64,000 bases of DNA from Clostridiales bacterium (GTDB lineage: Bacteria; Bacillota; Clostridia; Christensenellales; Borkfalkiaceae). The notes under the pieces were generated by a model, which ran no database searches, was not told where the DNA came from, and saw only the letters and a program-made list of their open reading frames with translations. The translations under genes were made by a program, and so were the position numbers. Below, piece by piece: positions 9,350-44,904 of this stretch. The stretch covers positions 8,056-72,055 of the forward strand of contig SVIJ01000001.1 of assembly GCA_015069565.1 (NCBI GenBank), in the 5' to 3' direction. Each line of letters starts with the position of its first letter. The first letter of the stretch is position 1.

Positions 9350-12300
9350 ATGCAACGTAAGAAACTCAAAAATCTAACGATAAAAATGGCGGCTTTTCTC
9401 CTTTTTTGCGGCGCTTTTTGCGGCGCGGGGAGCGTTGCGCCGTCTTTTGAAAACGCACAGGCAGAGAGTGGCATAGCCCCCTCTGCTTTGCCTTTTGATG
9501 GCGGCGACCTTTTCCCGTCCACGACGTTGGAAGGCGGCTTTTCCGACACGCACGCCGCGAGTCAGGAAAAATATTTGTATTCCCGTATCGGCATGCAAAA
9601 GGACGGCGTTTCCGTCCGCGACGTCACCAAGGGCGCAACGGATGCACACCGTTCACGCGTCGTCGTGATTGATAGCGGCGTAAAATATGATCACGAAGAT
9701 TTTTTGGCGGCGGACGGATCTATTCGTTTTAGCCCTTTGAGCTACAACGTGACGATGAAAAAAACGGTCGCAGAAGCAGGGTATGAAATCTTGGCGGATA
9801 GCGAAATTGTAGGCGGACACGGTACCCAGGTATGCGGTCAAATCTTTGCCGTTGGGGATAATGGCGTCGGAATCGCGGGGCTTGCCGAAGACGTGGAGCT
9901 GATTTTTGTCAAGGTCACGCCCACCTCGCAAGGCGGCTACGACGGCTACGAGATGCTGGAAGCGATGGAGTACGCGGCAACGCTGAACGCCGACGTCGTG
10001 AATATGTCACTGGGCAATTTCTTGACGAGCAATCCCTATTCATCCGTTTTGCGTAGAATCCGCAATAGCGGCGCGGTGATCGTTTCTGCAGCAGGGAACG
10101 TTTCCAAGAGCGATTTGCATTATCCGTCTGCGGATAGTAGCGTAATCGGCGTGGGGGCGTTTACAAACCTGCTCAATTATTCGTCCACGGCGACGGAATA
10201 TCCCTTGGCTTCCTATTCGACGTTCGGGGATAAGAACGTGCAAGTTTGCGCGCCTGGCGGCTTTTACTCGACGACGATGGACGGCGGCTATGCGTACGCC
10301 AACGGCACTTCGCTCGCTACGCCGATCGTCACTTCGGCGGTGGCGCTGTATCGTTCGCTGTACCCCGAATCCACGGTAGAAGAAGTAGAAGCGGCGCTCT
10401 ATGCGTCCGCAACCGACCAAGGGGATTACGGCAAGGATTATAAGTTCGGCTACGGTGGCTTGAATATCTACGATTTCCTGTTTGGAAAAACGGGTCAGGT
10501 CACCTTTGATTTTGGGGGCGGCAACGAGCAAACGCGCACGGTGAAGGAAGGGCATGCTTTACAGGAGTACCCTTTCCCGACGGTGGGAAATATACCTACG
10601 GGTAAGGAGTTTGGCGGTTGGTACTTGGATAAAGCCTACACTAAGCCGTTGACCTATTATAAGCAGGTTTTGCCGATCGGCACGCGCGTGTACGCGAAGT
10701 GGCAAAATATCGGCGCAGACGGCTTATCGACGGGCTCGGCAAACGGCTGCGGCGCGCTGGATTACACCTTTACAAAAAGCGGCAATATCGCAATTAAGGG
10801 CTACCATGGCTGCGGTGAGCGCTTAATTTTGCCTAAAAACCTTACGGTGGACGGCAAAATCTACTCTATAACAGAGCTTGCGGCAAAGGCGTTGCAGGGG
10901 CATAAAACCTTGAAAAAAATCGTCTTGCCGACTACGGTGACGACGATTCGAGAATACGCGTTTGCCGACGATTATGAGTACGTATACCTGCCGTCGTCGG
11001 TGACTACGGTGGAAAAACACGCCTTCCGCAACAGCTCGGGAACGCTGTATATGGAAAGCGAAACGGGCGCGGACGGCTTTGCGGTCGGCTGGAACGAAGG
11101 CGCGGAGTTGACCAACGTTTTGAAGGTTGGACAAGTCAAGGTGGAAGACGGGCTGGAACTCGTCTTGATCGACGGAAAATATACCCTGCTTACCTACGAA
11201 GGTGCAGATAGGTACGTATCTTTGGATTTGGAATATCCTGTGACGACGATTGCGCCGCAGGCGTTTGAAGGAAATACACGCGTGGAAACGGTGTATGCGC
11301 CCGACGTGCTTTCGATCGGTGAAAGAGCGTTTTACGGCTGTACGGGCTTGACGGACGTGCAATTCTCGTCGGTGGAAAGCATCGGGGCTTCGGCGTTTTA
11401 CGGTTGCGCCGCCTTGACGGATCTGCAATTCCCCGCAAGCTTGCGCGTGATTGAAAACTCGGCGTTTGCAGGCAATGAAGCGCTCATTCGGTTTTCTATC
11501 CCTGCTGGGAGCGTTTTGGAGCGCATCGGCGATTATGCTTTTGAAGACTGCCTTTCGCTGGAAGGGGTGGATTTGCATAACGCGCAGGCGCTGACCTACG
11601 TGGGCTTGAACGCGTTTGCGGACGCGAAAAACGCCTTTGTGCTCTATATACCCGACAACGTACAAACGATCGGGTATAATGCTTTTGGCGGCATGCAGAG
11701 CTTGACTTCCGCGCGCTTGCCCTTTTTGGGTAGGGGGCGGAAGGATACGTATACCCACTTTGGATATACCTTCGGCGCAAGCAATATCGACCTGCAATCG
11801 GCGGTCGTGCCTGCGAATTTGCAGTATCTTTTCGTCGGCGGTGACGTGCAGGACGGCGCGTTCAAGGGAATGAGCGGACTCACCGTTTTTGTGGCAGGAA
11901 ATTGTAGCGAAGTAGACGGTCTTACCGTATTTAGTGGCGGCAGGTACGCGTTTATTCAAATTTATGCACAGGATTTGCTGATCGGGATGCTGGGCGGCAA
12001 AGCAAACAGCGAGTTGCCCACGTCGACGCTAAATAGCGCATTCCGCGCCCCCAAGGGCTATGCGAGCGCAGGCTGGTCGGGTGCGGACGTTTCCGTATTC
12101 CCTGCCGAAGGCACGCACGTGTGGACGCTGGATACGCAGGCGGAAAGCTATGAGATTGTCTTCTGCGACGAAGCAGGAAACGTTCTTTCTACGCAAACGC
12201 TTGGCTACGGCGAACGGGCAGTAGAACCCGCACTGCCGCAAAAGCCGACCACGGCGCAGTATGAATACGTCTTTATCGGTTGGGATCGTCCGTTGACGCC

Positions 12301-13657
12301 TGCGGTGGAAAACGCCGTCTACACGGCGGTATATCAAGCTGTGGCGCGGAGCTATACCGTGCGTTTTTACAGCGACGATGGAACGCTTTTGTCGCAGGAC
12401 GTTTACCTGTACGGCGAGATGCCGATCGCGCCGATCGTGAGCGATCGTCCGATGGACAACACCTATTATGAAAAGTTTGTCGGTTGGGATCATGAAGTGG
12501 CGCTTACGCAAGAGGATGCGGAATATCACGCGCGGTTTGAAAAAACGTACGTCGAATACAAGATTTGCTTCTTGTATGAAGACGGAACAAGCTTCTTTGA
12601 AAAGACATACTATTACGGGGAAGAAATTTCTGCACCGAACACGGATAGAGAACAAAACGTGGCATACAGGTACGAGTTTATCGGTTGGAAAGAGCCGTTT
12701 AGCATGGTCACGTGCGACGCCGATTATACAGCGTTGTACCGCGAAATTTTGCGTGAATACACCGTTGTTTTTGTGGATTACGACGGCAAGGAAATTAGCC
12801 GTGCAACGGTTGCGTACGGTGAAATTCCTGTGACCCCGACTCCGCCCGAAAGAGCGGAAGAAGGCGGTTTCCGTTATGAGTTCATCGGCTGGGATACGGA
12901 AGTGGTAGCCGTTTTCGGTGACGCTACGTATACGGCGGCGTATAAAGCGGTTTCGACGAAGATTACGGTCAAGTTTGTCAATTATGACGGCTCGCTACTC
13001 TCGGAAGCGGAATACGACAAGGGTGCGACGGTTATCCAGCCTAATACGCCGACGAGAACGGTGGATAGCAAGACCTATTATTACGAGTTCGCAGGCTGGG
13101 ATAAAGACGTGACGTCGGCAACGGAAAACGTGACCTATAAAGCCACCTACGAACGCAAATATTACGAATACACCATCCGCTTTGCGGACTACGACGGTAG
13201 TGTGATTTCGGAAGAAGTGTACCGCTATGGCGCGTCGGTGACCGTTCCTGCAAATCCGAGCCGTGAAGGGTATACCTTCGTCGGTTGGAATCCAGAGATT
13301 GCGAAGGCTGAAAAGGACGTTGTTTATACGGCGGTCTACGAAAAGTTTCCAGGCGGTGGCGGCTCGGGCGACGATAGCTCGGGGGGAAACACCAATAGCG
13401 GCGATGATAGCAGTTCGGGCGGCTTAGACGACTCGACGGGCGGCAATAGCTCGGGCAACAACGATAGCTCGGATAGTTCTAACGCAGATAGCAGTACGGG
13501 GGATTCGTCGACGGGCGCGTTCGATTCTTCGTCTATCGTACCGCCGTCGGTGCAGGATTCGCCCAAAAAGAGCGGCTGCAACGGAACGGTTGGGGGCGTG
13601 GGCGTATGCTGTATGCTTTTTGCGGCTCTCATCTTCTGCTGCAAAAAGGAAGAATAA
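9350..13657 (+). CDS. S8 (subtilisin-family) serine peptidase fused to BspA-type LRRs, six GW-type repeats, an S/G/D-rich linker and a C-terminal TM anchor
   Basis: Signal peptide present. Catalytic motifs RVVVIDSGV (Asp), GGHGTQVCG (His), NGTSLATP (Ser). LRR_5-like region (LILPKNLTVDGKIYSITELAAKAL...). Repeats of type Y.F.GWD. Hydrophobic tail VGVCCMLFAALIFCC-KKEE. Confidence 0.85.
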   Translation: MQRKKLKNLTIKMAAFLLFCGAFCGAGSVAPSFENAQAESGIAPSALPFDGGDLFPSTTLEGGFSDTHAASQEKYLYSRIGMQKDGVSVRDVTKGATDAHRSRVVVIDSGVKYDHEDFLAADGSIRFSPLSYNVTMKKTVAEAGYEILADSEIVGGHGTQVCGQIFAVGDNGVGIAGLAEDVELIFVKVTPTSQGGYDGYEMLEAMEYAATLNADVVNMSLGNFLTSNPYSSVLRRIRNSGAVIVSAAGNVSKSDLHYPSADSSVIGVGAFTNLLNYSSTATEYPLASYSTFGDKNVQVCAPGGFYSTTMDGGYAYANGTSLATPIVTSAVALYRSLYPESTVEEVEAALYASATDQGDYGKDYKFGYGGLNIYDFLFGKTGQVTFDFGGGNEQTRTVKEGHALQEYPFPTVGNIPTGKEFGGWYLDKAYTKPLTYYKQVLPIGTRVYAKWQNIGADGLSTGSANGCGALDYTFTKSGNIAIKGYHGCGERLILPKNLTVDGKIYSITELAAKALQGHKTLKKIVLPTTVTTIREYAFADDYEYVYLPSSVTTVEKHAFRNSSGTLYMESETGADGFAVGWNEGAELTNVLKVGQVKVEDGLELVLIDGKYTLLTYEGADRYVSLDLEYPVTTIAPQAFEGNTRVETVYAPDVLSIGERAFYGCTGLTDVQFSSVESIGASAFYGCAALTDLQFPASLRVIENSAFAGNEALIRFSIPAGSVLERIGDYAFEDCLSLEGVDLHNAQALTYVGLNAFADAKNAFVLYIPDNVQTIGYNAFGGMQSLTSARLPFLGRGRKDTYTHFGYTFGASNIDLQSAVVPANLQYLFVGGDVQDGAFKGMSGLTVFVAGNCSEVDGLTVFSGGRYAFIQIYAQDLLIGMLGGKANSELPTSTLNSAFRAPKGYASAGWSGADVSVFPAEGTHVWTLDTQAESYEIVFCDEAGNVLSTQTLGYGERAVEPALPQKPTTAQYEYVFIGWDRPLTPAVENAVYTAVYQAVARSYTVRFYSDDGTLLSQDVYLYGEMPIAPIVSDRPMDNTYYEKFVGWDHEVALTQEDAEYHARFEKTYVEYKICFLYEDGTSFFEKTYYYGEEISAPNTDREQNVAYRYEFIGWKEPFSMVTCDADYTALYREILREYTVVFVDYDGKEISRATVAYGEIPVTPTPPERAEEGGFRYEFIGWDTEVVAVFGDATYTAAYKAVSTKITVKFVNYDGSLLSEAEYDKGATVIQPNTPTRTVDSKTYYYEFAGWDKDVTSATENVTYKATYERKYYEYTIRFADYDGSVISEEVYRYGASVTVPANPSREGYTFVGWNPEIAKAEKDVVYTAVYEKFPGGGGSGDDSSGGNTNSGDDSSSGGLDDSTGGNSSGNNDSSDSSNADSSTGDSSTGAFDSSSIVPPSVQDSPKKSGCNGTVGGVGVCCMLFAALIFCCKKEE
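12149..13348 (+). repeat. Six tandem ~67-aa coding repeats inside the S8 peptidase gene
   Basis: Units start YEIVFCDE, YTVRFYSD, YKICFLYE, YTVVFVDY, ITVKFVNY, YTIRFADY. Each carries YG....P...P....Y.F.GW......D..Y.A.Y. Followed by an S/G/D low-complexity tract to about 13530. Confidence 0.8.
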
Positions 13658-13813: not shown

Positions 13814-14224
13814 ATGAACATCAATTCTATGGTTAACTATTGCTTAGGGCTTTCCTATTACGACCTTGAAAATTTTGCAGGTCAAAACTACAAGAAGGTG
13901 CATGCACACATCGCAAGCAAGCACGGCGGCGACAAGGCAAACACCCTTCTCATCGGCTCGATTTTTACCTGTATTGCGACGGATGGCAAGCTTTCCGAAG
14001 GGGAATGGAAGTTCATCGCTTCCTTCATCGGCGGCTATACTTACGACGAAGCGTTTAAGGTAGCGAGTGAGTTCTATTGCGACGAAGCGGAAAAGACCAC
14101 GCGCGATCTGATCGATTTCTTGCCTTCGGACGTTGCGGAAGCGCTCGTTTCCGTGTGCATTGCGGTGCTTGCGGTGGACGGCAGAATGGAAGGCCCTGAA
14201 ATGGCGTTCCTTCGTAGCCTTTAA
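13814..14224 (+). CDS. TerB-like domain protein (136 aa)
   Basis: Two halves each carry the TerB-type A.DG...E..F motif (CIATDGKLSEGEWKFI; VLAVDGRMEGPEMAFL). Paralogue of the next gene. Confidence 0.5.
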   Translation: MNINSMVNYCLGLSYYDLENFAGQNYKKVHAHIASKHGGDKANTLLIGSIFTCIATDGKLSEGEWKFIASFIGGYTYDEAFKVASEFYCDEAEKTTRDLIDFLPSDVAEALVSVCIAVLAVDGRMEGPEMAFLRSL

Positions 14225-14244: not shown

Positions 14245-14664
14245 ATGACTGTACGTGAAATGATAGATATGTGTTTGGGTATGTCCCGTAGCGAGCTGGA
14301 AAACTTTGCGGGAAGATATTTTAACACCGTTTACAATTATCTTTCGGAGCAGGTTGGATCCAGCCTTGCGATGCGCGGAATGAAGATTGCTATTTTCAGC
14401 GCGCTTGCGGCGGATGGGGATCTTTCGGATGCGGAATACGAGTTTGTTCGTTCCTTCCTTGGCGGTTATTCTTATTCGGATGCGTGGCAGGAAGTGGATA
14501 TGGCGCAAAGCAGGGAATTGCGTGATGAAATTCACACGATGATTTGTAGACTTCCGTCGTCGCCGAGAGCGGCGTTCCAAGCGATGAGCATCGCGATCCT
14601 GTGCGTAGATAAGCGAATCTACGGCGAAGAAATAGACTATTTGGAAACCTATCTTCTTCCGTAA
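14245..14664 (+). CDS. TerB-like domain protein (139 aa), paralogue of 13814..14224
   Basis: Shares ...CLG.S...LENFAG... with its neighbour, plus ALAADGDLSDAEYEFV and ILCVDKRIYGEEIDYL. Confidence 0.5.
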   Translation: MTVREMIDMCLGMSRSELENFAGRYFNTVYNYLSEQVGSSLAMRGMKIAIFSALAADGDLSDAEYEFVRSFLGGYSYSDAWQEVDMAQSRELRDEIHTMICRLPSSPRAAFQAMSIAILCVDKRIYGEEIDYLETYLLP

Positions 14665-15707: not shown

Positions 15708-16664
15708 TTAAAAGCCGCATTCTTCTTGGAATTCTCGCAAGCCTTCGACGTATTCGTCGGGGTTGTTTGGATAGGCAAGCCCGTGCCCTGCGCCGTGCAG
15801 GGTGATAAGCTTCTTTTTCGGCGCGTTGCACGCGGCGTACATATCCACGCTCATTTGATAGGGCACGTAATCATCCGCGTCGCCGTGCAGGAAAATCACG
15901 GGCGTTTTTGCTCGTTTCACCGACTCGATAGGGCAGGAATCGTTCGGGTCAAAGCCGCCGAAGATGATGCCGCCAAATCGGATAAAAGGGTATACCATGT
16001 CCGCAGGCAAGCCCATTTCACGCACCACCTTCTTGATGATTTCCTTTGCCGATGAAAAGCCGCAATCCGCCATCACGGAAACGACGTTTTCGGGCAGCGT
16101 TTCTTCCGATGCAAGCAGTACCGTCGTAGCCCCCATCGACACGCCGCCGATCATTAGCGTTCGATCCTTGCCAAACTTTTTCACGGCAAAGTCAATCCAA
16201 GTCAAGCAGTCCTTTTTCTCTTTGACGCCGAAGGTGATCACCCGTCCGTCGCTCGGGCCGCTTCCGCGTTGATTGACAATCAGCATACTTCTGCCCAGCG
16301 CCGCGCAACGGTCGATTGCGCCCGATAAATCCCGCTCCGCCGTGCCTTGGTAGCCGTGGAACAAAAGCTCTACGGGGGAGTTCGGGGCGTATTCATAATA
16401 TGCGCCGCGCAGGGTCAAGCCGTCGAAGGAAGTCACCGACACGTCTTCGTGCGGCAGCTTGCGTAAGCGTTCCATCCAGTCTTTCATTTGTGGGTAAAAA
16501 GGGACGTAGACGTCGCCTGGGGGATACTCGTATTCCCCTTCGCCGAGCGGCTTGCGCTTGGGGGAATAGAACACCTTCAAAAAGCAACCCAAGCAAATGA
16601 GCAAAAAAAGCGCCGCCACGCCTAAAATTCCGCAAAGAATCCAAAAAACAATCTCATACCACAT
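15708..16664 (-). CDS. Membrane-anchored alpha/beta hydrolase (S9/COG1073-like)
   Basis: N-terminal TM. Nucleophile elbow GGVSMGA, acid HGDADDYVP, His GAGHGLAY. Confidence 0.8.
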   Translation of the reverse strand: MWYEIVFWILCGILGVAALFLLICLGCFLKVFYSPKRKPLGEGEYEYPPGDVYVPFYPQMKDWMERLRKLPHEDVSVTSFDGLTLRGAYYEYAPNSPVELLFHGYQGTAERDLSGAIDRCAALGRSMLIVNQRGSGPSDGRVITFGVKEKKDCLTWIDFAVKKFGKDRTLMIGGVSMGATTVLLASEETLPENVVSVMADCGFSSAKEIIKKVVREMGLPADMVYPFIRFGGIIFGGFDPNDSCPIESVKRAKTPVIFLHGDADDYVPYQMSVDMYAACNAPKKKLITLHGAGHGLAYPNNPDEYVEGLREFQEECGF

Positions 16665-17019
16665 TTCTATTATCTCTCGTAATTAACCAAAGTAATATAA
16701 TCCAAACCAAGATTTTTAGCGGCAAATTTTGCCTACTACTTCGTTAAAAACCTTGATAAACCGTCGGGTTGATCTGCGGTTTTTGCCTTGTAGAAGGACG
16801 AAAATTTGCTCGCTATAAAATTGCTTCGCACCCAAAAGTTGGGATTTTGAAATGATTTTGGGCGCGGAGGAAGAAATTATACCAAAGTATTATGATGACG
16901 ACAAGCCACAAAAGCGTTCAAAAGACGGATTTTGGGCTGGTTTGGATTATATTGCTTTGGTTATAGGGGAATTATATCACTTTCTTTTTGCTTTTGCAAG
17001 CGGAAAAAGAGAAAAACCC

Positions 17020-17048
17020 TTGCAAGTGCGAGAAAAATGTGATATACT
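17020..17048 (+). promoter_or_regulatory. Sigma-70-type promoter of the ATP-grasp/TIR-NACHT/IMPase operon
   Basis: TTGCAA, 17-nt spacer, TATACT with upstream TG. A second TATAAT lies at 17053..17058. RBS AGGAG lies before the ATG at 17079. Confidence 0.6.
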
Positions 17049-17078
17049 AACGTATAATCACATTAAAAAGGAGCGATT

Positions 17079-17936
17079 ATGAAAGGGTGGCTGGTCGTCA
17101 ACGGCTTTTTACAATCGAATAAGTTTGACGAGCTGTACGCCTTTTTGTGCCGCGCGGCGGTTTCGCTCGGTATCGAATTAGAAAAAAAGACGTCGACGGA
17201 GCTTTTCGACCGCGTGGACGCGCTTGTGGATAAGCCCGATTTCGTGCTGTTTTGGGACAAGGACTACGCCCTTGCCAAGCGCTTGGAAAACGCAGGGCTG
17301 CGCCTTTTTAACAGCGCGGAAGGGGTGCGGCTTGCGGACGATAAAACGCTGACGGCGCTTGCCCTTTCGGGGAAGGTAAAAACCCCCAAGACGATGCTTG
17401 CGCCCATGACCTTCGACGGGGTGGGGTACACCGATTTATCCTTTTTGGCAAGAGCGGAAAAGGAGCTCGGCTATCCCATGGTCGTAAAGGAAGCGTGCGG
17501 CTCGTTTGGGCGGCAGGTATACTTGGTGCATAGCGCAAAAGAGCTACAAAAGCTTGTATCGGGCTTTGGGTATAAGTCCTTTTTGTTGCAGGAATATATT
17601 GCGTGCAGTTCGGGCAGGGATTTGCGCGTGAACGTCGTTGGCGGCAGGGTGCTTTGCGGAATGCTCAGAGAAAACGACAGCGATTTCCGCTCGAATATCA
17701 CAGGCGGCGGCAAGGCACACGCCTATACGCCCACGGTAGAGCAGTCGGACGCGGCGGTGGCGGCGTGTAGGGCGCTCGGGCTGGATTTTGCAGGCGTGGA
17801 CGTACTGTTTGGCGAAGGGGGAGATCCGCTCGTTTGCGAAGTGAATTCCAACCCCCATTTTAGAAGCACCTACGATTGCACGGGGGTGGATATGAGCGTG
17901 GAAATTTTGCGCTATATCCAAGAAATGCTTTTATGA
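17079..17936 (+). CDS. RimK-type ATP-grasp ligase 1
   Basis: GYPMVVKEACGSFGRQVYLV; LLQEYI...GRDLRVNVVGGRV; DFRSNITGGG; GLDFAGVDVLF...VCEVNSNPHF. Confidence 0.8.
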   Translation: MKGWLVVNGFLQSNKFDELYAFLCRAAVSLGIELEKKTSTELFDRVDALVDKPDFVLFWDKDYALAKRLENAGLRLFNSAEGVRLADDKTLTALALSGKVKTPKTMLAPMTFDGVGYTDLSFLARAEKELGYPMVVKEACGSFGRQVYLVHSAKELQKLVSGFGYKSFLLQEYIACSSGRDLRVNVVGGRVLCGMLRENDSDFRSNITGGGKAHAYTPTVEQSDAAVAACRALGLDFAGVDVLFGEGGDPLVCEVNSNPHFRSTYDCTGVDMSVEILRYIQEMLL

Positions 17937-18778
17937 AGGGCTGGCTGATTTACGACGAAGCAGGGGCGGCGCGCAACGAGTGGTTTATCGGCGAGTGCCT
18001 GCGCTATGCGAAGGAGTACGGGCTAGATTTGCGGTTGCAGATTGCGTGTGGCGAAGCTTGCCCCGACGAAGAGTTGCCTGATTTTGCGCTCGTGAGAACG
18101 ATTGCCCCTACGCTCAGCGAGCGTTTGGAAAAAGGGGGCGTCCGCGTGTTTAACAATGCGGAAGTGTCGGCGGTTGCCAACGATAAGTGGTACACCCACC
18201 AACGAGCGCTAACGCTCGACCTTCCCGTGATGGCGACACTACTTTCATCCGCTTGTCAAGAGAGTTCACCCTTTGGCTACCCTGTGGTGGTAAAAAAGCG
18301 TGACGGTCACGGCGGCAGCGAAGTGTATAAAGCGGATACGGAGTGGGAGTACCGCGCGCTTTGGCAGGGGCGCAATCCTGCGGACTACGTGACGCAGGCG
18401 ATTTGCTCGGAGCTTGGGAAGGATATGCGCGTTTACCTGCTCGGCGGCGAGATTTTAGGGGCGGTTTTGCGGACGTCTGAAACGGATTTCCGTAGCAACT
18501 TTTCGCTTGGCGGAAAGGTTGAATGCGTACCTGTCCCCCACGAAATTCAAAAAATGGTGCAAAAACTACATAAAAATCTGCAAACGGATTTTGTCGGAAT
18601 GGATTTTATTCGCCACGGCGGCGAATGGGTTTTGAACGAAATCGAAGACGTTGTAGGCAGCCGAATGCTGTACAAGTCGGCAGGGCTGGACGTGGCGAGA
18701 GCCTATATAATGCACGTGGCGAAAGCAATGGCAAAAACAACGGAAAAAACGCCTGAAAGGGGGCAAGAGAATGGATAA
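17933..18778 (+). CDS. RimK-type ATP-grasp ligase 2
   Basis: The start MKGWLIYDE overlaps the upstream stop (ATGA), and I prefer it to the listed 17876 start. GYPVVVKKRDGHGGSEVY; GKDMRVYLLGGEILGAV; DFRSNFSLGG; DFVGMDFI...VLNEIEDVVG. Confidence 0.8.
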   Translation: MKGWLIYDEAGAARNEWFIGECLRYAKEYGLDLRLQIACGEACPDEELPDFALVRTIAPTLSERLEKGGVRVFNNAEVSAVANDKWYTHQRALTLDLPVMATLLSSACQESSPFGYPVVVKKRDGHGGSEVYKADTEWEYRALWQGRNPADYVTQAICSELGKDMRVYLLGGEILGAVLRTSETDFRSNFSLGGKVECVPVPHEIQKMVQKLHKNLQTDFVGMDFIRHGGEWVLNEIEDVVGSRMLYKSAGLDVARAYIMHVAKAMAKTTEKTPERGQENG

Positions 18779-21611
18779 CAAGAACATCTTTATCAGCTAT
18801 GGGCACGGAACGCACGGCGAGAAGATTCAGCGGCTTGCGGATGATTTACGCAAATACGGCTTCAACGTCTTTTTCGACGTCGATTACTTAAAGCTTGGCG
18901 ACTGGGAACAAACCATCGACAAGCACATCGTCGCGTGTAAATACTTCCTGTTTTTCGTTTCCGAGCGTTCGACGTCCCCCGACGGGTACTGCTTGAACGA
19001 GCTTTGCCGCGCAGGTGAAAACAACTCGGTGATCATCCCCATTTTGGTGGACGATTCGCGCGTGCCGCTTAGCATCAACAAATACCAACGCCTGTTCTTC
19101 AAGGACTGCTTTGAAGGGGCGGACGGCTTGAACGAGAACAAGTACAAGGATTTTCTTATTCAGCTCGTTTCCATTTTGAGCGGAAACGTCAAGCTTGGCT
19201 TTGCGGACGAAGACGCGCGCTTGGAAGCGATTTTGCAGCCCATCTCGTCCAAGGATTTCGTCTTCCGCTACTACGACGATTTCTGCGGCAGAAAGGAAGC
19301 CTTCCAAAAGTTTGAAGAATTCGTGGCGTCGCCCAAGAACTTTTTCTGGATTAAAGCCAGACCTGGGTGCGGTAAAACGGCGTTTTCGAGTATGCTTATC
19401 TGGCGTTATTCGGAGTTTGTTGCGGCGGCGCATTTCTGCAAGTTCAACAACTCGGACAGAGCGAACCCGAAATACATCATCTCGTCGATTGCCTACCAGC
19501 TTGCAGGGGCGTTGCCCGAGTACAAGAAAAAGCTTTGCGAGCTGACGGGCTTGGAATCGGTGTTCGAGAAAAACGCTATGCGTATCTTTGAGTATTTGCT
19601 CATCGAGCCGACGCTCGATTTACACCCGAGCCGCCCCGTCGTGATCGTAATCGACGCGCTGGACGAGTGCTCTTGGCGTGGGGACAACGAGCTTTGCAAG
19701 CTTTTGCAAAGAATGCGTGGACGCATACCTGCCTGGATGAAATTCGTAATGACGAGCCGCGACGAAGCGGATATTCGCAGATATTTATCCCTGATGGCAA
19801 CGTCCTACACCCTTTCCGATACGGAAACGGACGACGACCTTCGCGAGTATTACAGAAAGCAATTTCCCCATGCGGGCGAAGACAAAATCGACGTCTTAGT
19901 GACGAAGGCGGAAGGGTCCTTCCTGTACGCGAGTGAAATCGTCAAGCAAATCAAGGAAGAAAACTTAACGCTCGACGATATCCATTTCTTCCCCGTCGGT
20001 ATTTACGGTTTCTTCAACGACTGCTTTTTGCGTATGTTCGGCAACGAAGCGGAGAACGAGATTACCTACGACGACGTAAAGCCGCTGTTAGAGTTTTTGT
20101 GTATTTCGCAAGAGCCTGTCGACGTCGATTTCTTGGAAGAATATTTGGAGCTCGACGAGTACCGCATCAACCAAATTTTGGCGCTCATTAGCGGTATGTT
20201 CCCCGTGCGTGACCGCACGATTGAGCCTGTACATAAATCACTTGTCGACTGGCTGACCGATTCCCACGACGTGGGGCATATCTTCTACGTCAGCAGAAAG
20301 AGCGGCTACAAGCGCTTGCTTTCCTATATCGAAGGCAAGTACGCAAGCGGCAAGGTGGACGATCCGTACGTGATGAAGTATTTTGGGGACACCCTGATCG
20401 CCTTAAAATCGTACGAGCGCTTGGCGGAAATTTTGAACGATTACGAGCTGCAACGCACCGTGATTGAAAAGCTCGACTTCGATTCGGGGCTGGAAAGATA
20501 CCTGTTGGAGCTCAAAAGCCTGCACGAAAACAAGAGCGAGCTTTGCGTCAAGCTTTTGTCCGAAGATACCTTCATCAAGCTCTTTTCAGCGAATCGTAGA
20601 CTGTTGTACAATTCAGGGATGTTCTTCACCTTAAAGAGCATCGGCTTGTCCGTAGCCTTGCGCACGGATAATCGAAACTGGGGCTTGGAAGGGGAAGTAG
20701 GAAAGGTTTTCTACTATTATATAGTAGAAGACTTTGCAAAAGCCATCAAAAAGGCAAAGACCCTGCTTGCGAGCGACGAGCTGAAAACGGACTACGTACT
20801 GCAATCGGAGCTTTATAACGTCAAGGGTCTTTCCGAGAGAAAGCTCGTGCTCTTTGACGACGCGCTCGAAAGCTTTGAAAACTGCATTGCCGCCACCGAA
20901 AGCGTGGAAGAAGCGCACAGCGAAAACAGCGATACCGAGTTTGAGCTTTCCTTGGCGCATCTTATCAAGGCGAAGATTTATCTTGCGATGCTCGATTTTT
21001 CCGCGTGCAATAAAAACTGCAAGAAGGCAATCAAAATCCTTGCGCGCAAGGTAGACGAGATGCCCGATTGCGACAAGCGGACGTCGAACATTTTGTTCCT
21101 TGCCGAAGACTATCGCGTTTTTGCCGACGCGCTCATTTGGCAAGGGGAATACGAAGAAGCGGCGGATAAGCTCAAAGAATGTCAGGACATCTACCAAGCG
21201 AACAACGGCTCGGTGGACCGGTACTATATTCGTTATAAATACACGTCGCTCTTATTGCATATTTTGCAAAAGGAAAGCGACGGCGCGGTGGAAGAGCTGG
21301 AAGATATGCTGGCGCGCGAAGCGACAAGCTCGTACGACAAGGGGCGGCTGTATCATTATATCGCGCTTTGCATATACTTGAATGGACGGGAGAATCCCGA
21401 GCTTGTCAAGAAGGGCTTTGAAGCGGCGAAAAAGGGTGTGGATACCTTCGACGGAATCGACGCTCTGCTCGAAAAGGCGGAGTGCGACCATTTGGCGCAA
21501 AAGCTTGCGAAGATGGCAGGCGCGCGCTATATGAGCGACGATGATGAAAACGAATACGTAGACGCTTGGATTGAGTACGTTGACGGATTTTTGCAGGAGA
21601 TAATCGGTTGA
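18771..21611 (+). CDS. TIR-NACHT(STAND NTPase)-TPR-like protein (bacterial NLR-like), 946 aa
   Basis: N-terminal TIR (IFISYGH...; FLFFVSERS...YCLNEL with Glu77 at 18999..19001). Walker A ARPGCGKT (K202). NACHT-type Walker B VVIVIDALDEC (D295-E299). The C-terminal ~400 aa is helical-repeat/TPR-like. The ATG overlaps the upstream gene by 8 nt. Confidence 0.85.
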   Translation: MDNKNIFISYGHGTHGEKIQRLADDLRKYGFNVFFDVDYLKLGDWEQTIDKHIVACKYFLFFVSERSTSPDGYCLNELCRAGENNSVIIPILVDDSRVPLSINKYQRLFFKDCFEGADGLNENKYKDFLIQLVSILSGNVKLGFADEDARLEAILQPISSKDFVFRYYDDFCGRKEAFQKFEEFVASPKNFFWIKARPGCGKTAFSSMLIWRYSEFVAAAHFCKFNNSDRANPKYIISSIAYQLAGALPEYKKKLCELTGLESVFEKNAMRIFEYLLIEPTLDLHPSRPVVIVIDALDECSWRGDNELCKLLQRMRGRIPAWMKFVMTSRDEADIRRYLSLMATSYTLSDTETDDDLREYYRKQFPHAGEDKIDVLVTKAEGSFLYASEIVKQIKEENLTLDDIHFFPVGIYGFFNDCFLRMFGNEAENEITYDDVKPLLEFLCISQEPVDVDFLEEYLELDEYRINQILALISGMFPVRDRTIEPVHKSLVDWLTDSHDVGHIFYVSRKSGYKRLLSYIEGKYASGKVDDPYVMKYFGDTLIALKSYERLAEILNDYELQRTVIEKLDFDSGLERYLLELKSLHENKSELCVKLLSEDTFIKLFSANRRLLYNSGMFFTLKSIGLSVALRTDNRNWGLEGEVGKVFYYYIVEDFAKAIKKAKTLLASDELKTDYVLQSELYNVKGLSERKLVLFDDALESFENCIAATESVEEAHSENSDTEFELSLAHLIKAKIYLAMLDFSACNKNCKKAIKILARKVDEMPDCDKRTSNILFLAEDYRVFADALIWQGEYEEAADKLKECQDIYQANNGSVDRYYIRYKYTSLLLHILQKESDGAVEELEDMLAREATSSYDKGRLYHYIALCIYLNGRENPELVKKGFEAAKKGVDTFDGIDALLEKAECDHLAQKLAKMAGARYMSDDDENEYVDAWIEYVDGFLQEIIG

Positions 21612-22381
21612 AAGAGTTGATTTCCTATTTGAAAAGTTTAATCGTGGAAGCAGGGGAGCTGTTGCTTTCGCAAACGGTTTCGGTGTCGAAGCATAAGACG
21701 GCAAACGACCTGCTGACGGAAAACGATCTTTTGATAGAGCGGTTTTTGATAGACGGCGTAAAGGGGAAGTTTCCCAGCGTGAACATCGTCAGCGAAGAAA
21801 CGGCGGCGGACAACGCCTTGCAGAGTGTGAGCGTGGTGATCGACCCGATCGACGGCACCTGCAACTATGCCGTGGGGACGGATCGTTTTGGGGTACAGGC
21901 AGCCATTTTTGATGGGGAAGAATGTGTGGCAAGTATGCTCTATTTCCCTGTGCAAAAGGAGCTGGTGACGGCGGAAAAGGGCAAGGGCGCGTTTTTGGGC
22001 GAGAAGCGGCTCGCGGTGGATACGGCAAAGCGAAGCGGCGACGGAGTGCTACTCATCAGCGACTACTATTCGGGGCAGGACGTGCCGATGGAAAAGCAGT
22101 TCGCGTTGGTGCAAGCCCTGCAAACGACGTTTTTGAAGACGCGGCATTTGGGGGCGGCGTGTGTGGATTTTGTGTCCTTGGCGCGCGGTCAAGCGGTGGC
22201 GTATATTTGCCATTATCATCATATTTGGGATATTGCGCCCGGGCTTTTGGCGGCGACGGAGAGTGGGTGTGTGTACGCGCATTTGAGCGGCGGGGAATAC
22301 CGCTACGGCGAGCCTGCCTTGGTGGTGGCAAACAGCGAAGAAACGCTGAAAAAGATACTAAAAACGTACGAAAAACTATAA
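21608..22381 (+). CDS. Inositol monophosphatase (IMPase/SuhB/CysQ) family phosphatase
   Basis: TTG start inside a TTGA overlap with the TIR-NACHT stop, with AGGAG 8 nt upstream. Motifs VSEE, VVIDPIDGTCNY, WDIAPG. Confidence 0.8.
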   Translation: MKELISYLKSLIVEAGELLLSQTVSVSKHKTANDLLTENDLLIERFLIDGVKGKFPSVNIVSEETAADNALQSVSVVIDPIDGTCNYAVGTDRFGVQAAIFDGEECVASMLYFPVQKELVTAEKGKGAFLGEKRLAVDTAKRSGDGVLLISDYYSGQDVPMEKQFALVQALQTTFLKTRHLGAACVDFVSLARGQAVAYICHYHHIWDIAPGLLAATESGCVYAHLSGGEYRYGEPALVVANSEETLKKILKTYEKL

Positions 22382-22410
22382 AAAAAGCGGCTTTTTAGCC
22401 GCTTTTTTTG
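22382..22410 (+). terminator. Intrinsic terminator closing the four-gene operon
   Basis: AAAAGCGGCT-TTTT-AGCCGCTTTTTTT. Confidence 0.8.
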
Positions 22411-22445: not shown

Positions 22446-22740
22446 ACTGTCCGAAGTGGTGAATTGAACGCAATGCGTTCGTGAATTGAAACCTGCGGTT
22501 TCGTGAATTCTCGCTGACGCTCCGTGAATTGTTTGCCTTTGGCAAACGTTGCGGAAAAATTGAAAATCATTCCATAACGCAAGGCAACGCCTTGCAATTC
22601 ACGACGGCATAGCCGTCAATTCACGCGTTTGAAAAACGCAATTCACGATTGCCTTTGGCAATCAATTCACTCCACAGCGATATGTTTGCCTACGCCAAAC
22701 GTGGGGAACGTAGGGCGGGGGCTTGCTCCCGCCGAATGGG
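22446..22740. repeat. Hairpin-array element, copy A (GTGAATT/AATTCAC type) plus GC-hairpin module
   Basis: Core 22459..22670: 4 x (GTGAATT + short hairpin), a central hairpin, then 4 x (hairpin + AATTCAC). Followed by GCGATAT + GTTTGCC..CCAAAC and GGCGGGGGCTTGCTCCCGCC. Confidence 0.85.
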
Positions 22741-22783: not shown

Positions 22784-23227
22784 TTAGATTTTATCCCGAC
22801 CTGCAAGATAATCCAACGAACAGGGCAGGTTTTTCGCTAATAGGTATAGGCTTGAAAGTTCGGGAATCTTTTTCCCTGCAAACCACAACGAGAGCTTGGA
22901 TTCGGTGATGCCCGTCAATTTGCTGATTTTATAGCGTGTTAAGCCACTTTCCATTATAATTTTACGAAAACGCTCGGTGGGTGTGCTGGTTAAAATGTAG
23001 CGTTCCTGTTGGCGTTCGTCCACTAAACCGAAAAGATAATCAAAGGAACATTCAAACACGTCCGAAATCTTGGCGGCGTTTTCGTAGGAAGGGATATGTT
23101 CGCCGCTTTTATATGCGTACAAACGGGATTGAGAAATCCCTGTTTTTTCAGAAAGCGCGCGGACGTCCATTTTGTGAATTAAAAGCAGTTCCAAAAATGC
23201 GTCCTGAAAGGTGTTTTCATTTTCCAT
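22784..23227 (-). CDS. XRE-family transcriptional regulator with two HTH domains
   Basis: Two HTH_XRE-like units (MDVRALSEKTGISQSRLYAYKSGEHIPS; LTRYKISKLTGITESKLSLWFAGKKIPE). Confidence 0.8.
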   Translation of the reverse strand: MENENTFQDAFLELLLIHKMDVRALSEKTGISQSRLYAYKSGEHIPSYENAAKISDVFECSFDYLFGLVDERQQERYILTSTPTERFRKIIMESGLTRYKISKLTGITESKLSLWFAGKKIPELSSLYLLAKNLPCSLDYLAGRDKI

Positions 23228-23535: not shown

Positions 23536-23756
23536 TTGTCCTTGCGGACAAGCGAGATTACGCCTGCGGCGTAGTGAGATTTACCTGCGGTAAGCGATAT
23601 TATGCTACGCACAGCGATATGTTTGCCTGTGGCAAACGTAAACGTAGGGCGGGGGCTTGCTCCCGCCGAATATAGGGACGGGCGTTCCTAATCGTCCAAA
23701 TGTAGGGGAGCGGTTTACGCTCCTGACAAAACGGGCGATTCGTGAATCGCCCCTAC
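23536..23756. repeat. Hairpin-array element, variant copy A' (GYGAKAT type) plus GC-hairpin and multibranch module
   Basis: TTGTCC-TTGC-GGACAA; GCGAGAT+TACGCC-TGC-GGCGTA; GTGAGAT+TTACC-TGC-GGTAA; GCGATAT...; GCGATAT+GTTTGCC-TGT-GGCAAAC; GGCGGGGGCTTGCTCCCGCC. GTAGGGG...CCCCTAC encloses two further hairpins. Confidence 0.75.
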
Positions 23757-32975: not shown

Positions 32976-33308
32976 GGGCGGGGGCTTGCTCCCGCCGATT
33001 GTAGGGACAGGCGTCCCCGACTGTCCGAAAAAGTGAATTGAACGCTATGCGTTCGTGAATTGAAATCTACGATTTCGTGAATTGTCGCTTGCGCGACGTG
33101 AATTGTTTGCCGATGGCAAACGTTGTGGTAGAATTTAAATTTTTCCATAACGCAAGGCAGAGCCTTGCAATTCACGACGGCTGTGCCGTCAATTCACGCG
33201 TTTGAAAAACGCAATTCACGATTGCTGTAAGCAATCAATTCACTTTGCCGCTTGCCGTATGAGATCCTTCGGCTACGCTCAGGATGACAAAGTGGGGCGC
33301 GTCAGGAT
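32976..33308. repeat. Hairpin-array element, copy B (GC hairpin + core 33033..33243 + GAGATCC module)
   Basis: See the finding at 33033. 304 bp (32976..33279) repeat at 35026..35329 with 4 mismatches. Confidence 0.9.
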
Positions 33309-34953: not shown

Positions 34954-35329
34954 GAGATCCTTCGGCTACGCTCAGGATGACAAAGTGGGGGTGCTCAGGA
35001 TGACGAAGTGGGGCGCTCGGGATAGGGGCGGGGGCTTGCTCCCGCCGATTGTAGGGACAGGCGTCTCCGACTGTTCGAAAAAGTGAATTGAACGCTATGC
35101 GTTCGTGAATTGAAATCTACGATTTCGTGAATTGTCGCTTGCGCGACGTGAATTGTTTGCCGATGGCAAACGTTGTGGTAGAATTTCAATTTTTCCATAA
35201 CGCAAGGCAGAGCCTTGCAATTCACGACGGCTGTGCCGTCAATTCACGCGTTTGAAAAACGCAATTCGCGATTGCTGTAAGCAATCAATTCACTTTGCCG
35301 CTTGCCGTATGAGATCCTTCGGCTACGCT
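34954..35329. repeat. Hairpin-array element, copy C (GAGATCC module + GC hairpin + core 35083..35293)
   Basis: Direct repeat of copy B, offset by exactly 2050 bp. Confidence 0.9.
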
Positions 35330-44745: not shown

Positions 44746-44904
44746 GTGAATTGATTTGCTTTGCAAATCGTGAATTGCCCTTGCGGGCGTGAATTGCATT
44801 CCACAAATGCGTGAATTGACGGCGGAAACGCCGTCGTTGCGGAAAAAATGAAAATCGTTCCATAACGTAAGGCTTTGCTTTGCAATTCACGAAACGGCAT
44901 TCAC
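44746..44904. repeat. Hairpin-array element, copy D (right arm truncated)
   Basis: 4 x (GTGAATT + hairpin), central GTTGCGG...CCATAAC, then only GTAAGGC-TTT-GCTTTGC + AATTCAC and a partial unit. Confidence 0.8.

Follow-up and report, generated by a model that had tools for sequence, protein, structure and literature searches.

The single-protein NLR-like defences of bacteria, such as bNACHT and Avs, are regarded as working without helper enzymes. Among bNACHT proteins, TIR is one of the N-terminal effectors and TPR one of the sensors (Kibby et al., bioRxiv 10.1101/2022.07.19.500537). For TIR effectors the accepted modes of action are depletion of nicotinamide adenine dinucleotide (NAD+) and signalling to a receptor protein. 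A private phosphatase fits neither this view nor that of the sensor without helpers. Such a phosphatase is encoded beside a TIR-STAND gene in a stretch of 64,000 nucleotides (nt) from a Clostridiales bacterium (assembly GCA_015069565.1, contig SVIJ01000001.1, positions 8,056 to 72,055 of the forward strand), which is called the window throughout. The locus in question, positions 17020-22410 of the window, holds two genes for RimK-type ATP-grasp ligases (AG1 and AG2), followed by a gene for a TIR-NACHT-TPR protein (TIR-STAND) and a gene for a phosphatase of the inositol monophosphatase (IMPase) family. This locus is probably a mosaic of two independent units that are co-transcribed in one lineage related to Candidatus Scatosoma. 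As a four-gene "system" it is a chance juxtaposition, and functional integration of the ATP-grasp genes with the TIR-STAND and IMPase genes is highly unlikely. Comparison of sequences favours, with reasonable probability, a conserved module of TIR-STAND and phosphoesterase, in which the IMPase is the dedicated partner.

The four overlapping + strand genes described in the first-pass annotation of the window are borne out (17079-22381, with three junctions visible in the sequence), as are all four of its domain assignments, which were examined by Pfam and NCBIfam profile searches and with an AlphaFold model. AG1 and AG2 overlap by ATGA (17933-17936), AG2 and TIR-STAND by 8 nt (ATGGATAA, 18771-18778), and TIR-STAND and IMPase by the 4 nt TTGA (21608-21611). 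The features of the locus are the following.

17020-17048, + strand: sigma-70-type promoter (TTGCAA, 17 nt, TG-n-TATACT)
17079-17936, + strand: AG1, 285 amino acids (aa)
17933-18778, + strand: AG2, 281 aa; the ATG at 17933 is backed by the homologue N-termini MKGWLIYDE
18725-18765, no strand: left mosaic junction; homology to locus L008 ends at 18724 and homology to locus L048 starts at 18766
18771-21611, + strand: TIR-STAND, 946 aa
18771-19190, + strand: TIR domain, aa 1-140; predicted NAD(P)-cleaving effector
19296-19880, + strand: NACHT-type STAND P-loop NTPase, aa ~176-370
20295-21611, + strand: TPR-like alpha-solenoid, aa ~509-946 plus the stop codon; presumed ligand sensor
21608-22381, + strand: IMPase, 257 aa; TTG start with GGAG 8 nt upstream
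~22357-22381, no strand: right breakpoint; homology to L048 ends at 22356
22382-22410, no strand: bidirectional intrinsic terminator with a 13-bp stem (5 G-C pairs), a 4-nt loop and A/T runs on both sides

Homology at the DNA level divides this arrangement in two. The window aligns by blastn with L008, a locus with an ATP-grasp pair, over 15708-16597 and 16965-18724, and with L048, in which MBL, TIR-STAND and IMPase genes stand together without ATP-grasp genes, over 18766-22356. These limits place the breakpoint in the last ~40 nt of AG2, and identity between the window and the related locus L047 steps from 84% to 94% at the same junction. By these alignments the transferred block is exactly TIR-STAND plus IMPase, which appear to have moved in as a two-gene module. 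In L008, AG2 ends in ...HVAKQMKQTR*; a terminator of its own, made of a hairpin and a T-run, comes next, and then uvrB. The AG2 gene of the window runs on to ...AKTTEKTPERGQENG* through a lineage-specific C-terminal extension of ~10 codons, which reads into the start of TIR-STAND and stops at a TAA formed by codons 2-3 of that gene. Because the extension stops there, the apparent translational coupling of AG2 and TIR-STAND would be a by-product of the module's landing site. L008 also shares with the window a divergent gene for a 318-aa alpha/beta-hydrolase upstream. It was considered as an "empty site" and rejected: the same hydrolase gene and ATP-grasp pair lie upstream, but uvrB lies downstream instead of an aminotransferase gene. 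A repeat search found no terminal repeats or target-site duplications flanking 18766-22410, and the repeats that it did find belong to other elements.

All four genes occur together only in the window, in L047, in L013 (a Candidatus Scatosoma metagenome-assembled genome) and in L133. The spacing between AG2 and TIR-STAND differs among them (-8 nt in the window and L047, +2 nt in L013, +33 nt in L133), and that between TIR-STAND and IMPase is -4 nt in all four. An aminotransferase gene lies downstream in each of the four, which fits a single ancestral insertion. TIR-STAND with IMPase, free of any ATP-grasp gene, is found in more than 20 other species. Across the module L048 is 75% identical to the window in DNA, about as much as the syntenic L013 (77%), and its flanks are unrelated; the module therefore relocates as a unit. 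It had been proposed that the co-occurrence of all four gene families be surveyed and that movement of the quartet as a unit be looked for. Co-occurrence was indeed found, in four related lineages only, and it is the pair of TIR-STAND and IMPase, not the quartet, that relocates.

The ATP-grasp genes have a wide distribution of their own. AG1 scores 114 bits against Pfam RimK and passes the family profile TIGR00768 rimK_fam (177.3 against a cut-off of 143.4). AG2 scores 65.5 bits against Pfam RimK (cut-off 21) and stays below rimK_fam (104.8 against 143.4). Neither reaches the NCBIfam equivalog cut-offs for RimK, LysX, MptN or CofF; the nearest solved structures to AG1 are RimK and LysX. The two are ~28% identical tandem diverged paralogues whose genes overlap by 4 nt, and 3204 AG1 homologues were retrieved. 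In L008-L012, where AG1 is 60-70% identical, the translationally coupled pair stands without TIR-STAND or IMPase. A metagenome scan with AG1 gave 80 loci, of which 58 were scorable, having 1.5 kb or more of sequence downstream. Within 6 kb of AG1, a TIR-STAND or IMPase-like gene was present in 0 of these 58, and within 6-8 kb of the pair no IMPase-like gene was present in the 58 or in L008-L012. The pair is widespread in gut Clostridia in varied contexts (L008-L012, L050-L129). In L009 it follows nrdD and a thioredoxin-reductase-like gene, in L011 a HAD phosphatase gene lies ~100 nt downstream of it, and one AG1 homologue (P0187) is fused to a BioY domain. It is a self-contained, housekeeping-like cassette, separate from the immune module.

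Homologues of TIR-STAND amount to more than 545 clusters. TIR-STAND and its partners were surveyed in two ways. A pattern-limited scan with a TIR-STAND alignment, applied to one genome per species, found 34 loci among 185,579 species genomes, scattered patchily over gut Clostridia, Bacilli/Anaeroplasma, Frisingicoccus, Petralouisia and an Olsenella. A pooled census comprised 43 non-redundant TIR-STAND genes, of which 37 could be scored downstream and 39 upstream. An IMPase gene lies immediately downstream in 26 of the 37, a HAD-Cof (Hydrolase_3) gene in five and a gene for a 248-aa MBL protein in two. One further locus has the IMPase gene immediately upstream, another, a TIR-less relative, has a PHP phosphoesterase gene immediately upstream, and two (L004 and L027) have no phosphoesterase partner. 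Of 27 non-redundant loci with a junction between TIR-STAND and IMPase, 20 have the two genes overlapping, and the others have them no more than 25 nt apart. IMPase follows TIR-STAND directly, with no ATP-grasp genes, in L048, L001 and L003 (79%, 71% and 59% TIR-STAND identity), and the HAD-Cof phosphatase takes the downstream place at 34% identity (L005-L007).

Upstream of TIR-STAND, 11 of 39 loci carry a gene for a ~225-aa MBL protein related to Apyc1, which is absent from the window, and one locus carries a HAD_2 gene. The MBL partner scores 44-47 bits against the Apyc1 Pfam profile PF23023, under the cut-off of 50 and over profile positions 5-91 of 250 only, and it exceeds the cut-off of Lactamase_B_2. 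Judged by these profiles it is related to anti-Pycsar Apyc1 and not a demonstrated member of that family. At 28% identity, the most distant relatives lack the TIR domain and are NACHT-TPR proteins of 829 aa (L044 5999-10475, and L045). In L044 the PHP gene lies directly upstream, preceded by an AbiEii-type nucleotidyltransferase gene; in the Olsenella locus L046 a PHP homologue (51% identical) lies upstream of TIR-STAND and an MBL gene downstream. Because the PHP gene also stands beside the TIR-less relative in L044, the phosphoesterase link may go with the STAND sensor and not with the TIR domain.

The IMPase of the window scores 149.7 bits against Pfam Inositol_P (PF00459; cut-off 27). It stays below the NCBIfam equivalog cut-offs for HisN (91.5 against 275), SuhB (83.6 against 332), FBPase/IMPase (82 against 264) and CysQ (60 against 229). 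Residues E63, E64, D79, P80, D82, G83, T84, W207, D208 and G212 are invariant in 25 IMPases of the module, and the metal and phosphate motifs (E-E, DPxDGT, WDxxxG) align in register with SuhB; by alignment, the catalytic residues are intact. The AlphaFold model (predicted local distance difference test, pLDDT, 94.7) has the canonical IMPase/SuhB fold, with template modelling (TM) scores of 0.85-0.91 to IMPA1, TM1415 and SuhB. The clade to which this protein belongs comprises 96 clusters of 97% to 41% identity, after which there is a gap to generic IMPases at 33% or less. In at least 27 of the 96, the longest contig of the IMPase cluster and that of the TIR-STAND match are of equal size, and two clusters picked for lacking contigs of matching size both proved to lie directly downstream of a TIR-STAND gene. 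Members of the clade thus adjoin TIR-STAND wherever this was checked. Pairwise identities of TIR-STAND and IMPase, taken from multiple alignments, correlate at r = 0.93 (300 pairs, 25 loci). On this sequence evidence the IMPase co-evolves with TIR-STAND and forms a clade distinct from generic IMPases.

The label "TIR-NACHT-TPR, NLR-like" is justified for the 946-aa protein on the strength of its AlphaFold model and its best PDB matches. In the model (mean pLDDT 86.6), the TIR domain takes an alpha/beta fold, the P-loop NTPase is joined by helical and winged-helix domains, and helical hairpins build a solenoid from residue ~509 to the end (~440 aa). Its top PDB matches in Foldseek are Avs3 bound to phage terminase (8dgc, E = 3.8e-10) and the archaeal STAND-TPR protein 6mfv; the plant TIR-NLR RPP1 (7crc) matches at E = 1.5e-8, and TPR proteins such as APC/C subunits, LGN, Rap and MalT domain III follow. 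Homologues of TIR-STAND carry TPR matches in Pfam. The TIR domain scores 55.9 bits against TIR_2 (aa 6-111) and weakly matches SARM1 TIR NADase structures by sequence. Its G72, C74, L75 and E77 (GYCLNEL) are invariant across 14 aligned homologues, whose identity goes down to 30%, so that the conserved Glu expected of TIR NADases in a (W/Y)CxxEL context appears to be present as E77. The motif YCLNEL resembles the plant WCLxEL motif, and E77 is presumably the equivalent of the catalytic Glu of plant TIRs and SARM1, judged by the motif and not by structural superposition. The NTPase scores 94.9 bits against NPHP3_N (PF24883; cut-off 24.8), with the P-loop domain at aa 180-366. It scores 17.8 bits against NACHT (PF05729), under the cut-off of 26.7, which relatives pass. 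Walker A (G199, G201, K202, T203) and Walker B (D295, D298, E299) are invariant in the same 14 homologues.

Between the window and L047, the synonymous substitution rate (dS) is similar across the block (0.34 for TIR-STAND, 0.39-0.55 for the other genes), which indicates that the block was co-inherited rather than recently exchanged. The ratio of non-synonymous to synonymous rates (dN/dS) is 0.019 for TIR-STAND, compared with 0.167 for AG1, 0.135 for AG2, 0.103 for IMPase and 0.119 for the aminotransferase. The same ranking is obtained against L013 and L133 and in every domain of TIR-STAND, whose values of 0.02-0.04 are several-fold under those of its neighbours, the ATP-grasp, IMPase and hydrolase genes, for which dS is similar. 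Recent horizontal replacement was considered as the cause of this conservation and rejected, since dS is similar and the difference lies in dN. Judged from these substitution rates, the gene is clearly functional and highly constrained. Such constraint suggests that the ligand is invariant or, possibly, that the role lies outside defence. Over deep divergence, the fastest-changing part of the protein is the last repeat block, aa 831-946.

As for expression, the promoter at 17020-17048 had been called near-consensus. It fits only 9 of 12 consensus positions, and with 23 comparable sites in the same 10 kb it is unremarkable by itself; what recommends it is conservation. The window, L047, L013 and the ATP-grasp-only L008, although only 66-90% identical in DNA overall, all keep the -35 TTGCAA and the extended -10 TGnTATACT unchanged, and for this reason the promoter is probably real. 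Its presence in L008 assigns it to the ATP-grasp cassette and implies that it predates the arrival of the TIR-STAND module; in the lineage of the window it probably also drives TIR-STAND and IMPase by read-through. The heptamer TTGCAAG occurs twice, ~25 nt apart, in TTTTGCAAGC (~16992-17001) and at the -35 position (17020-17026). Both copies are invariant in four aligned loci, and the pair may be an operator. The intrinsic terminator at 22382-22410 is as clean as had been described, being the top terminator-like site in a 10-kb scan, and is conserved in L047. The second unit (18766-22410) would accordingly be pictured as having landed at the stop codon of AG2, replaced the terminator of the cassette and come under read-through expression. 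A single compact transcription unit is plausible from the promoter, the overlaps and the terminator, but it is not one functional system. The lesson is that translational coupling with a shared promoter and terminator does not prove a functional system: here these features arose when a module lacking a promoter inserted at the stop codon with which a housekeeping cassette ends.

By analogy with STAND/NLR proteins and TIR NADases, the most likely reading of the module is an NLR-like defence protein that would cleave NAD, with the phosphoesterase as an obligatory co-enzyme. In the mechanism proposed, the TPR-like solenoid would recognise an invariant ligand: a small molecule, or a fold conserved among phage proteins. 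Nucleotide-dependent oligomerisation of the STAND domain would gather the N-terminal TIR domains, and the assembled TIRs would form active sites and cleave NAD(P)+, leading to growth arrest of the abortive-infection type. The co-translated phosphatase would then act on a phosphorylated sugar or nucleotide tied to the TIR chemistry. It might remove the 2'-phosphate from NADP(H) or from 2'-phospho-ADP-ribose (2'-phospho-ADPR). Alternatively, it might destroy the sugar-phosphate intermediates from which NAD+ is rebuilt, namely ribose 5-phosphate (R5P), phosphoribosyl pyrophosphate (PRPP), nicotinamide mononucleotide (NMN) and ADPR pyrophosphate (ADPR-PP). In the many relatives that encode it, the MBL phosphodiesterase would supply a diester-cleaving step. 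The trio of IMPase, HAD and PHP enzymes recalls the non-orthologous displacement of histidinol-phosphate and adenosine 3',5'-bisphosphate (pAp) phosphatases, a resemblance that points to no particular substrate.

A co-translated, co-evolving and fold-swapped partner would imply an extra chemical step around the TIR reaction. The role favoured for the phosphatase, though a doubtful one, is that of a co-effector that makes the loss of NAD(P) complete or irreversible. IMPase-family NADP(H) phosphatases exist, according to Fukuda et al. 2007 as cited in PMC4518329. The fold search likewise returned the IMPase-family NADP(H) phosphatase structures 4g61 and 5f24 and a complex with 2'-AMP, 5dw8. Phages rebuild NAD+ by way of ADPR-PP and PRPP through NARP1 and NARP2 (bioRxiv 10.1101/2024.02.11.579819). 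Still tentative is the broader proposal that TIR-STAND and phosphoesterase constitute a previously unrecognised class of NLR-type module with two or three enzymes, in which the phosphoesterase is an obligatory second catalytic step. The main clade has IMPase in this place, other clades have HAD-Cof, MBL or PHP enzymes instead, and an Apyc1-related phosphodiesterase often accompanies them. The second step would either turn the TIR product into an active molecule, be it a toxin or a signal, or else remove NADP(H) together with ADPR-PP, PRPP, NMN and R5P. If the latter is true, it would be a host answer to the NARP counter-defences of phages. The substrate of the phosphatase could thus reveal a new TIR-derived nucleotide, an extension of depletion to NADP(H), or a counter to NAD+ reconstitution by phages. 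That the phosphatase is instead a guarded host protein is a third possibility.

Several observations weigh against a conserved defence module of this kind. Defence, NADase activity, trigger and substrate are all predictions from sequence and models, and the searches by sequence and fold gave no clue to the substrate of the IMPase, returning only generic IMPase/SuhB relatives. The partner-less L004 and L027 indicate that the phosphatase is not universally required. The association with IMPase may go back to a single ancestral acquisition, and independent support for the linkage comes only from the HAD, MBL and PHP replacements, ~9 loci. Strong purifying selection in every domain of TIR-STAND is atypical of an arms-race sensor. 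Searches with the protein gave no matches in phage GenBank or IMG/VR and a single weak one, of 14% coverage, among PLSDB plasmids. Only one of ~8 annotated loci (L004) has a defence-island context, the rest being mostly metabolic or housekeeping. The quartet has been kept across four lineages, at dS of up to ~2, so that some interplay with the ATP-grasp pair is conceivable.

This retention bears on two explanations that keep more of the four genes together. One is the proposal of the first-pass annotation that all four form a defence system, in which the ligases would make or alter a peptide-nucleotide molecule that serves with the TIR-STAND protein and is processed by the IMPase. It can appeal to the single promoter and terminator, to the overlapping stops and starts, to the persistence of the quartet in the window, L047, L013 and L133, and to the tight fusion of TIR-STAND genes generally to an upstream enzyme gene, be it MBL, HAD or AG2. 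It is nevertheless very improbable and has been set aside. The ATP-grasp pair stands alone in 58 of 58 scorable loci and in L008-L012, and TIR-STAND with IMPase stands alone in more than 20 species. The breaks in DNA homology separate AG2 precisely from TIR-STAND, and the variable spacing at that junction contrasts with the fixed -4 nt at the next. The ATP-grasp genes evolve 3-9 times faster than TIR-STAND at non-synonymous sites, and the shared aminotransferase neighbour fits one ancestral insertion. The other explanation, an ATP-grasp/ATP-grasp/IMPase metabolic operon into which a TIR-STAND gene inserted, was right about the pair, which is ordinary and widespread and in L011 has a HAD phosphatase gene nearby. 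It assigned the IMPase to the wrong unit, and it is extremely unlikely as a whole. No IMPase-like gene accompanies the pair in the 58 scorable loci or in L008-L012, and no member of the IMPase clade was seen directly downstream of the pair without TIR-STAND. In every case examined the clade lies beside TIR-STAND, with which it co-evolves, and homology to loci free of ATP-grasp genes spans both genes jointly (18766-22356).

Two further explanations accept the two-gene module and differ on what it does. The main rival, itself unlikely, makes the phosphatase a brake, which by analogy with the ring nucleases of type III CRISPR would continuously hydrolyse a TIR-derived nucleotide or the trigger of the sensor, set a threshold and prevent autoimmunity. 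Tight co-translation would suit a brake, as would the interchange of several unrelated phosphoesterase folds, and a phosphodiesterase related to the signal-degrading Apyc1 together with a monoesterase could jointly degrade a cyclic or diester nucleotide in full. The match to the Apyc1 profile is, however, partial and below its cut-off, and the module encodes no separate signal-binding effector (SLOG, SAVED, CARF or Macro). The TIR domain holds the effector position, which leaves no obvious signal to quench, and degrading the product would not restore the NAD+ lost to a leaky TIR. It is also quite unlikely that the module has no antiphage role at all and that it is a stress, dormancy or signalling device of gut Bacillota linked to NAD(P) or nucleotides, whose STAND protein senses an endogenous metabolite. 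Such a device would account for the dN/dS values, which even in the sensor are at or below those of neighbouring core genes or comparable to them, for the mostly metabolic surroundings, for the absence from phage, plasmid and IMG/VR collections apart from the one partial plasmid match, and for the lack of a full-length match in PADLOC; STAND-TPR proteins such as MalT, whose domain III is among the Foldseek matches, sense metabolites. What it does not account for is the patchy distribution in unrelated contexts, the module-precise relocation represented by L048, and the fact that the closest structural analogues are immune receptors. One homologue, moreover, lies among defence genes: the TIR-STAND gene of L004 (GCA_037194205.1; 47% identical) is surrounded by genes for SIR2_2, AAA_15/AAA_21, NUDIX, a superfamily-1 helicase and a Schlafen-group-3 helicase, a typical defence island. 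The reading preferred here remains a TIR-STAND immune module with a dedicated phosphoesterase.

The surroundings of the operon differ in part from what had been supposed. The presumed RHS remnants at 9350-13657 are a 1435-aa S8 subtilase surface protein with LRR_5 (BspA-type) and Flg_new repeats, and similar giant Flg_new/LRR_5 proteins lie upstream of the ATP-grasp pair in L008. The genes taken for TerB-like (13814-14224 and 14245-14664) have no Pfam match at E<=1e-3. They are adjacent paralogous reading frames of 136 and 139 aa with similar N-termini (...MCLGMS/...YCLGLS...ELENFAG). Neither call is confirmed, and the GC content of the operon (0.48-0.54) is the same as that of its surroundings and not anomalous.

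The repeat that was said to be mobile and to neighbour the operon does exist, and one copy lies just to the right of the terminator. Clusters of CGTGAATTG form a dispersed intergenic repeat at 22480-22647, 33054-33220, 35104-35248 and 44769-44891, typically as three + strand copies followed by two or three - strand copies (20 exact matches against 0.82 expected). By its sequence, the repeat looks like a repetitive extragenic palindromic (REP) element or a miniature inverted-repeat transposable element (MITE). To the left of the operon, in the gap that separates the alpha/beta-hydrolase gene from the ATP-grasp promoter, a stretch of ~280 nt is enclosed by a 26-nt inverted repeat whose arms (16684-16709 and 16938-16963) are 96% complementary. 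DNA homology with L047, L013 and L008 is broken exactly at 16684-16963, and because of this the segment looks like a MITE-like insertion; 16737-16905 weakly matches L048 11978-12145 by blastn. To the right, an exact 31-nt direct repeat (22707-22737 and 23641-23671) flanks a gene for a 147-aa double-HTH_3 (XRE-type) protein on the - strand (22784-23227). This segment is present in L047 and absent from L013, where the aminotransferase gene comes directly after IMPase, and in sequence it looks like a small insertion/deletion cassette.

The proteins of the locus were also set against catalogued defence systems. PADLOC (PADLOC-DB 2.0) was applied to the four proteins, five distant TIR-STAND relatives and five partner enzymes; it returned generic TIR-domain matches and no full-length system, and its database holds no model that fits any of the partners. 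DefenseFinder has a single-gene system named Rst_TIR-NLR, which is mentioned in three survey papers. At the STAND level, the window protein matched STAND_TPR only, in part and at E = 0.0024. The earlier remark that no described defence system has this combination of genes is accordingly sustained within PADLOC. Full-text literature searches yielded no description of TIR, NLR, bNACHT or STAND defence genes linked with an IMPase, HAD, MBL, Apyc1 or other phosphoesterase partner, and the pairing is apparently undescribed.

Each component nevertheless has close relatives among known families. The ATP-grasp genes resemble the RimK/LysX family of alpha-L-glutamate ligases in that AG1 passes the family profile and has its nearest structures there; they differ from it in forming a tandem diverged pair that stays below every equivalog cut-off. 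The IMPase is collinear from end to end, with all motifs and TM scores of 0.8-0.9, with SuhB, IMPase and the dual-specific IMPase/NADP(H) phosphatases (2qfl, 1imc, 4g61, 5f24). In contrast to SuhB and the generic IMPases, the module clade is 41-97% identical within itself and at most 33% identical to them, has no equivalog match and is found only beside TIR-STAND genes.

The window protein shares with bNACHT proteins a plan in three parts: an effector at the N-terminus, a P-loop NTPase of the NACHT type, and repeats at the C-terminus as the sensor. However, bNACHT systems are described as single-gene, whereas this module has a co-inherited and usually translationally coupled phosphoesterase; its defence role would follow by analogy, and the window protein matches no PADLOC model beyond the TIR domain. 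Avs3 (8dgc), the best full-length structural match, likewise combines a STAND NTPase with a helical-repeat sensor and an N-terminal effector. No hidden Markov model of Avs1-5 matches the window protein, although the Olsenella relative partially matches Avs1b (E = 9e-6). Compared with Avs3, the window protein has a TIR instead of a nuclease effector, is half the size and has a phosphatase partner.

Plant TIR-NLRs such as RPP1 have the same order of TIR, STAND NTPase and repeat sensor, and by analogy the TIR NADase activity would be expected to depend on oligomerisation in both. The window protein differs in that its sensor is TPR-like rather than LRR and its NTPase is of the NACHT rather than the NB-ARC type. 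The module lacks an EDS1-type signal receptor and adds a phosphoesterase; in plants, the hydrolases of TIR products NUDT6/7 are unlinked negative regulators. Thoeris, finally, would be similar by analogy, as a multi-gene module in which a TIR acts on NAD+, and relatives of the window protein show weak TIR-level matches to ThsB in PADLOC. None of the four operon proteins matches a ThsA-type (SLOG/Macro) effector in PADLOC. The TIR of the window is instead fused to its own STAND sensor, and its partner is a phosphatase rather than a signal receptor.

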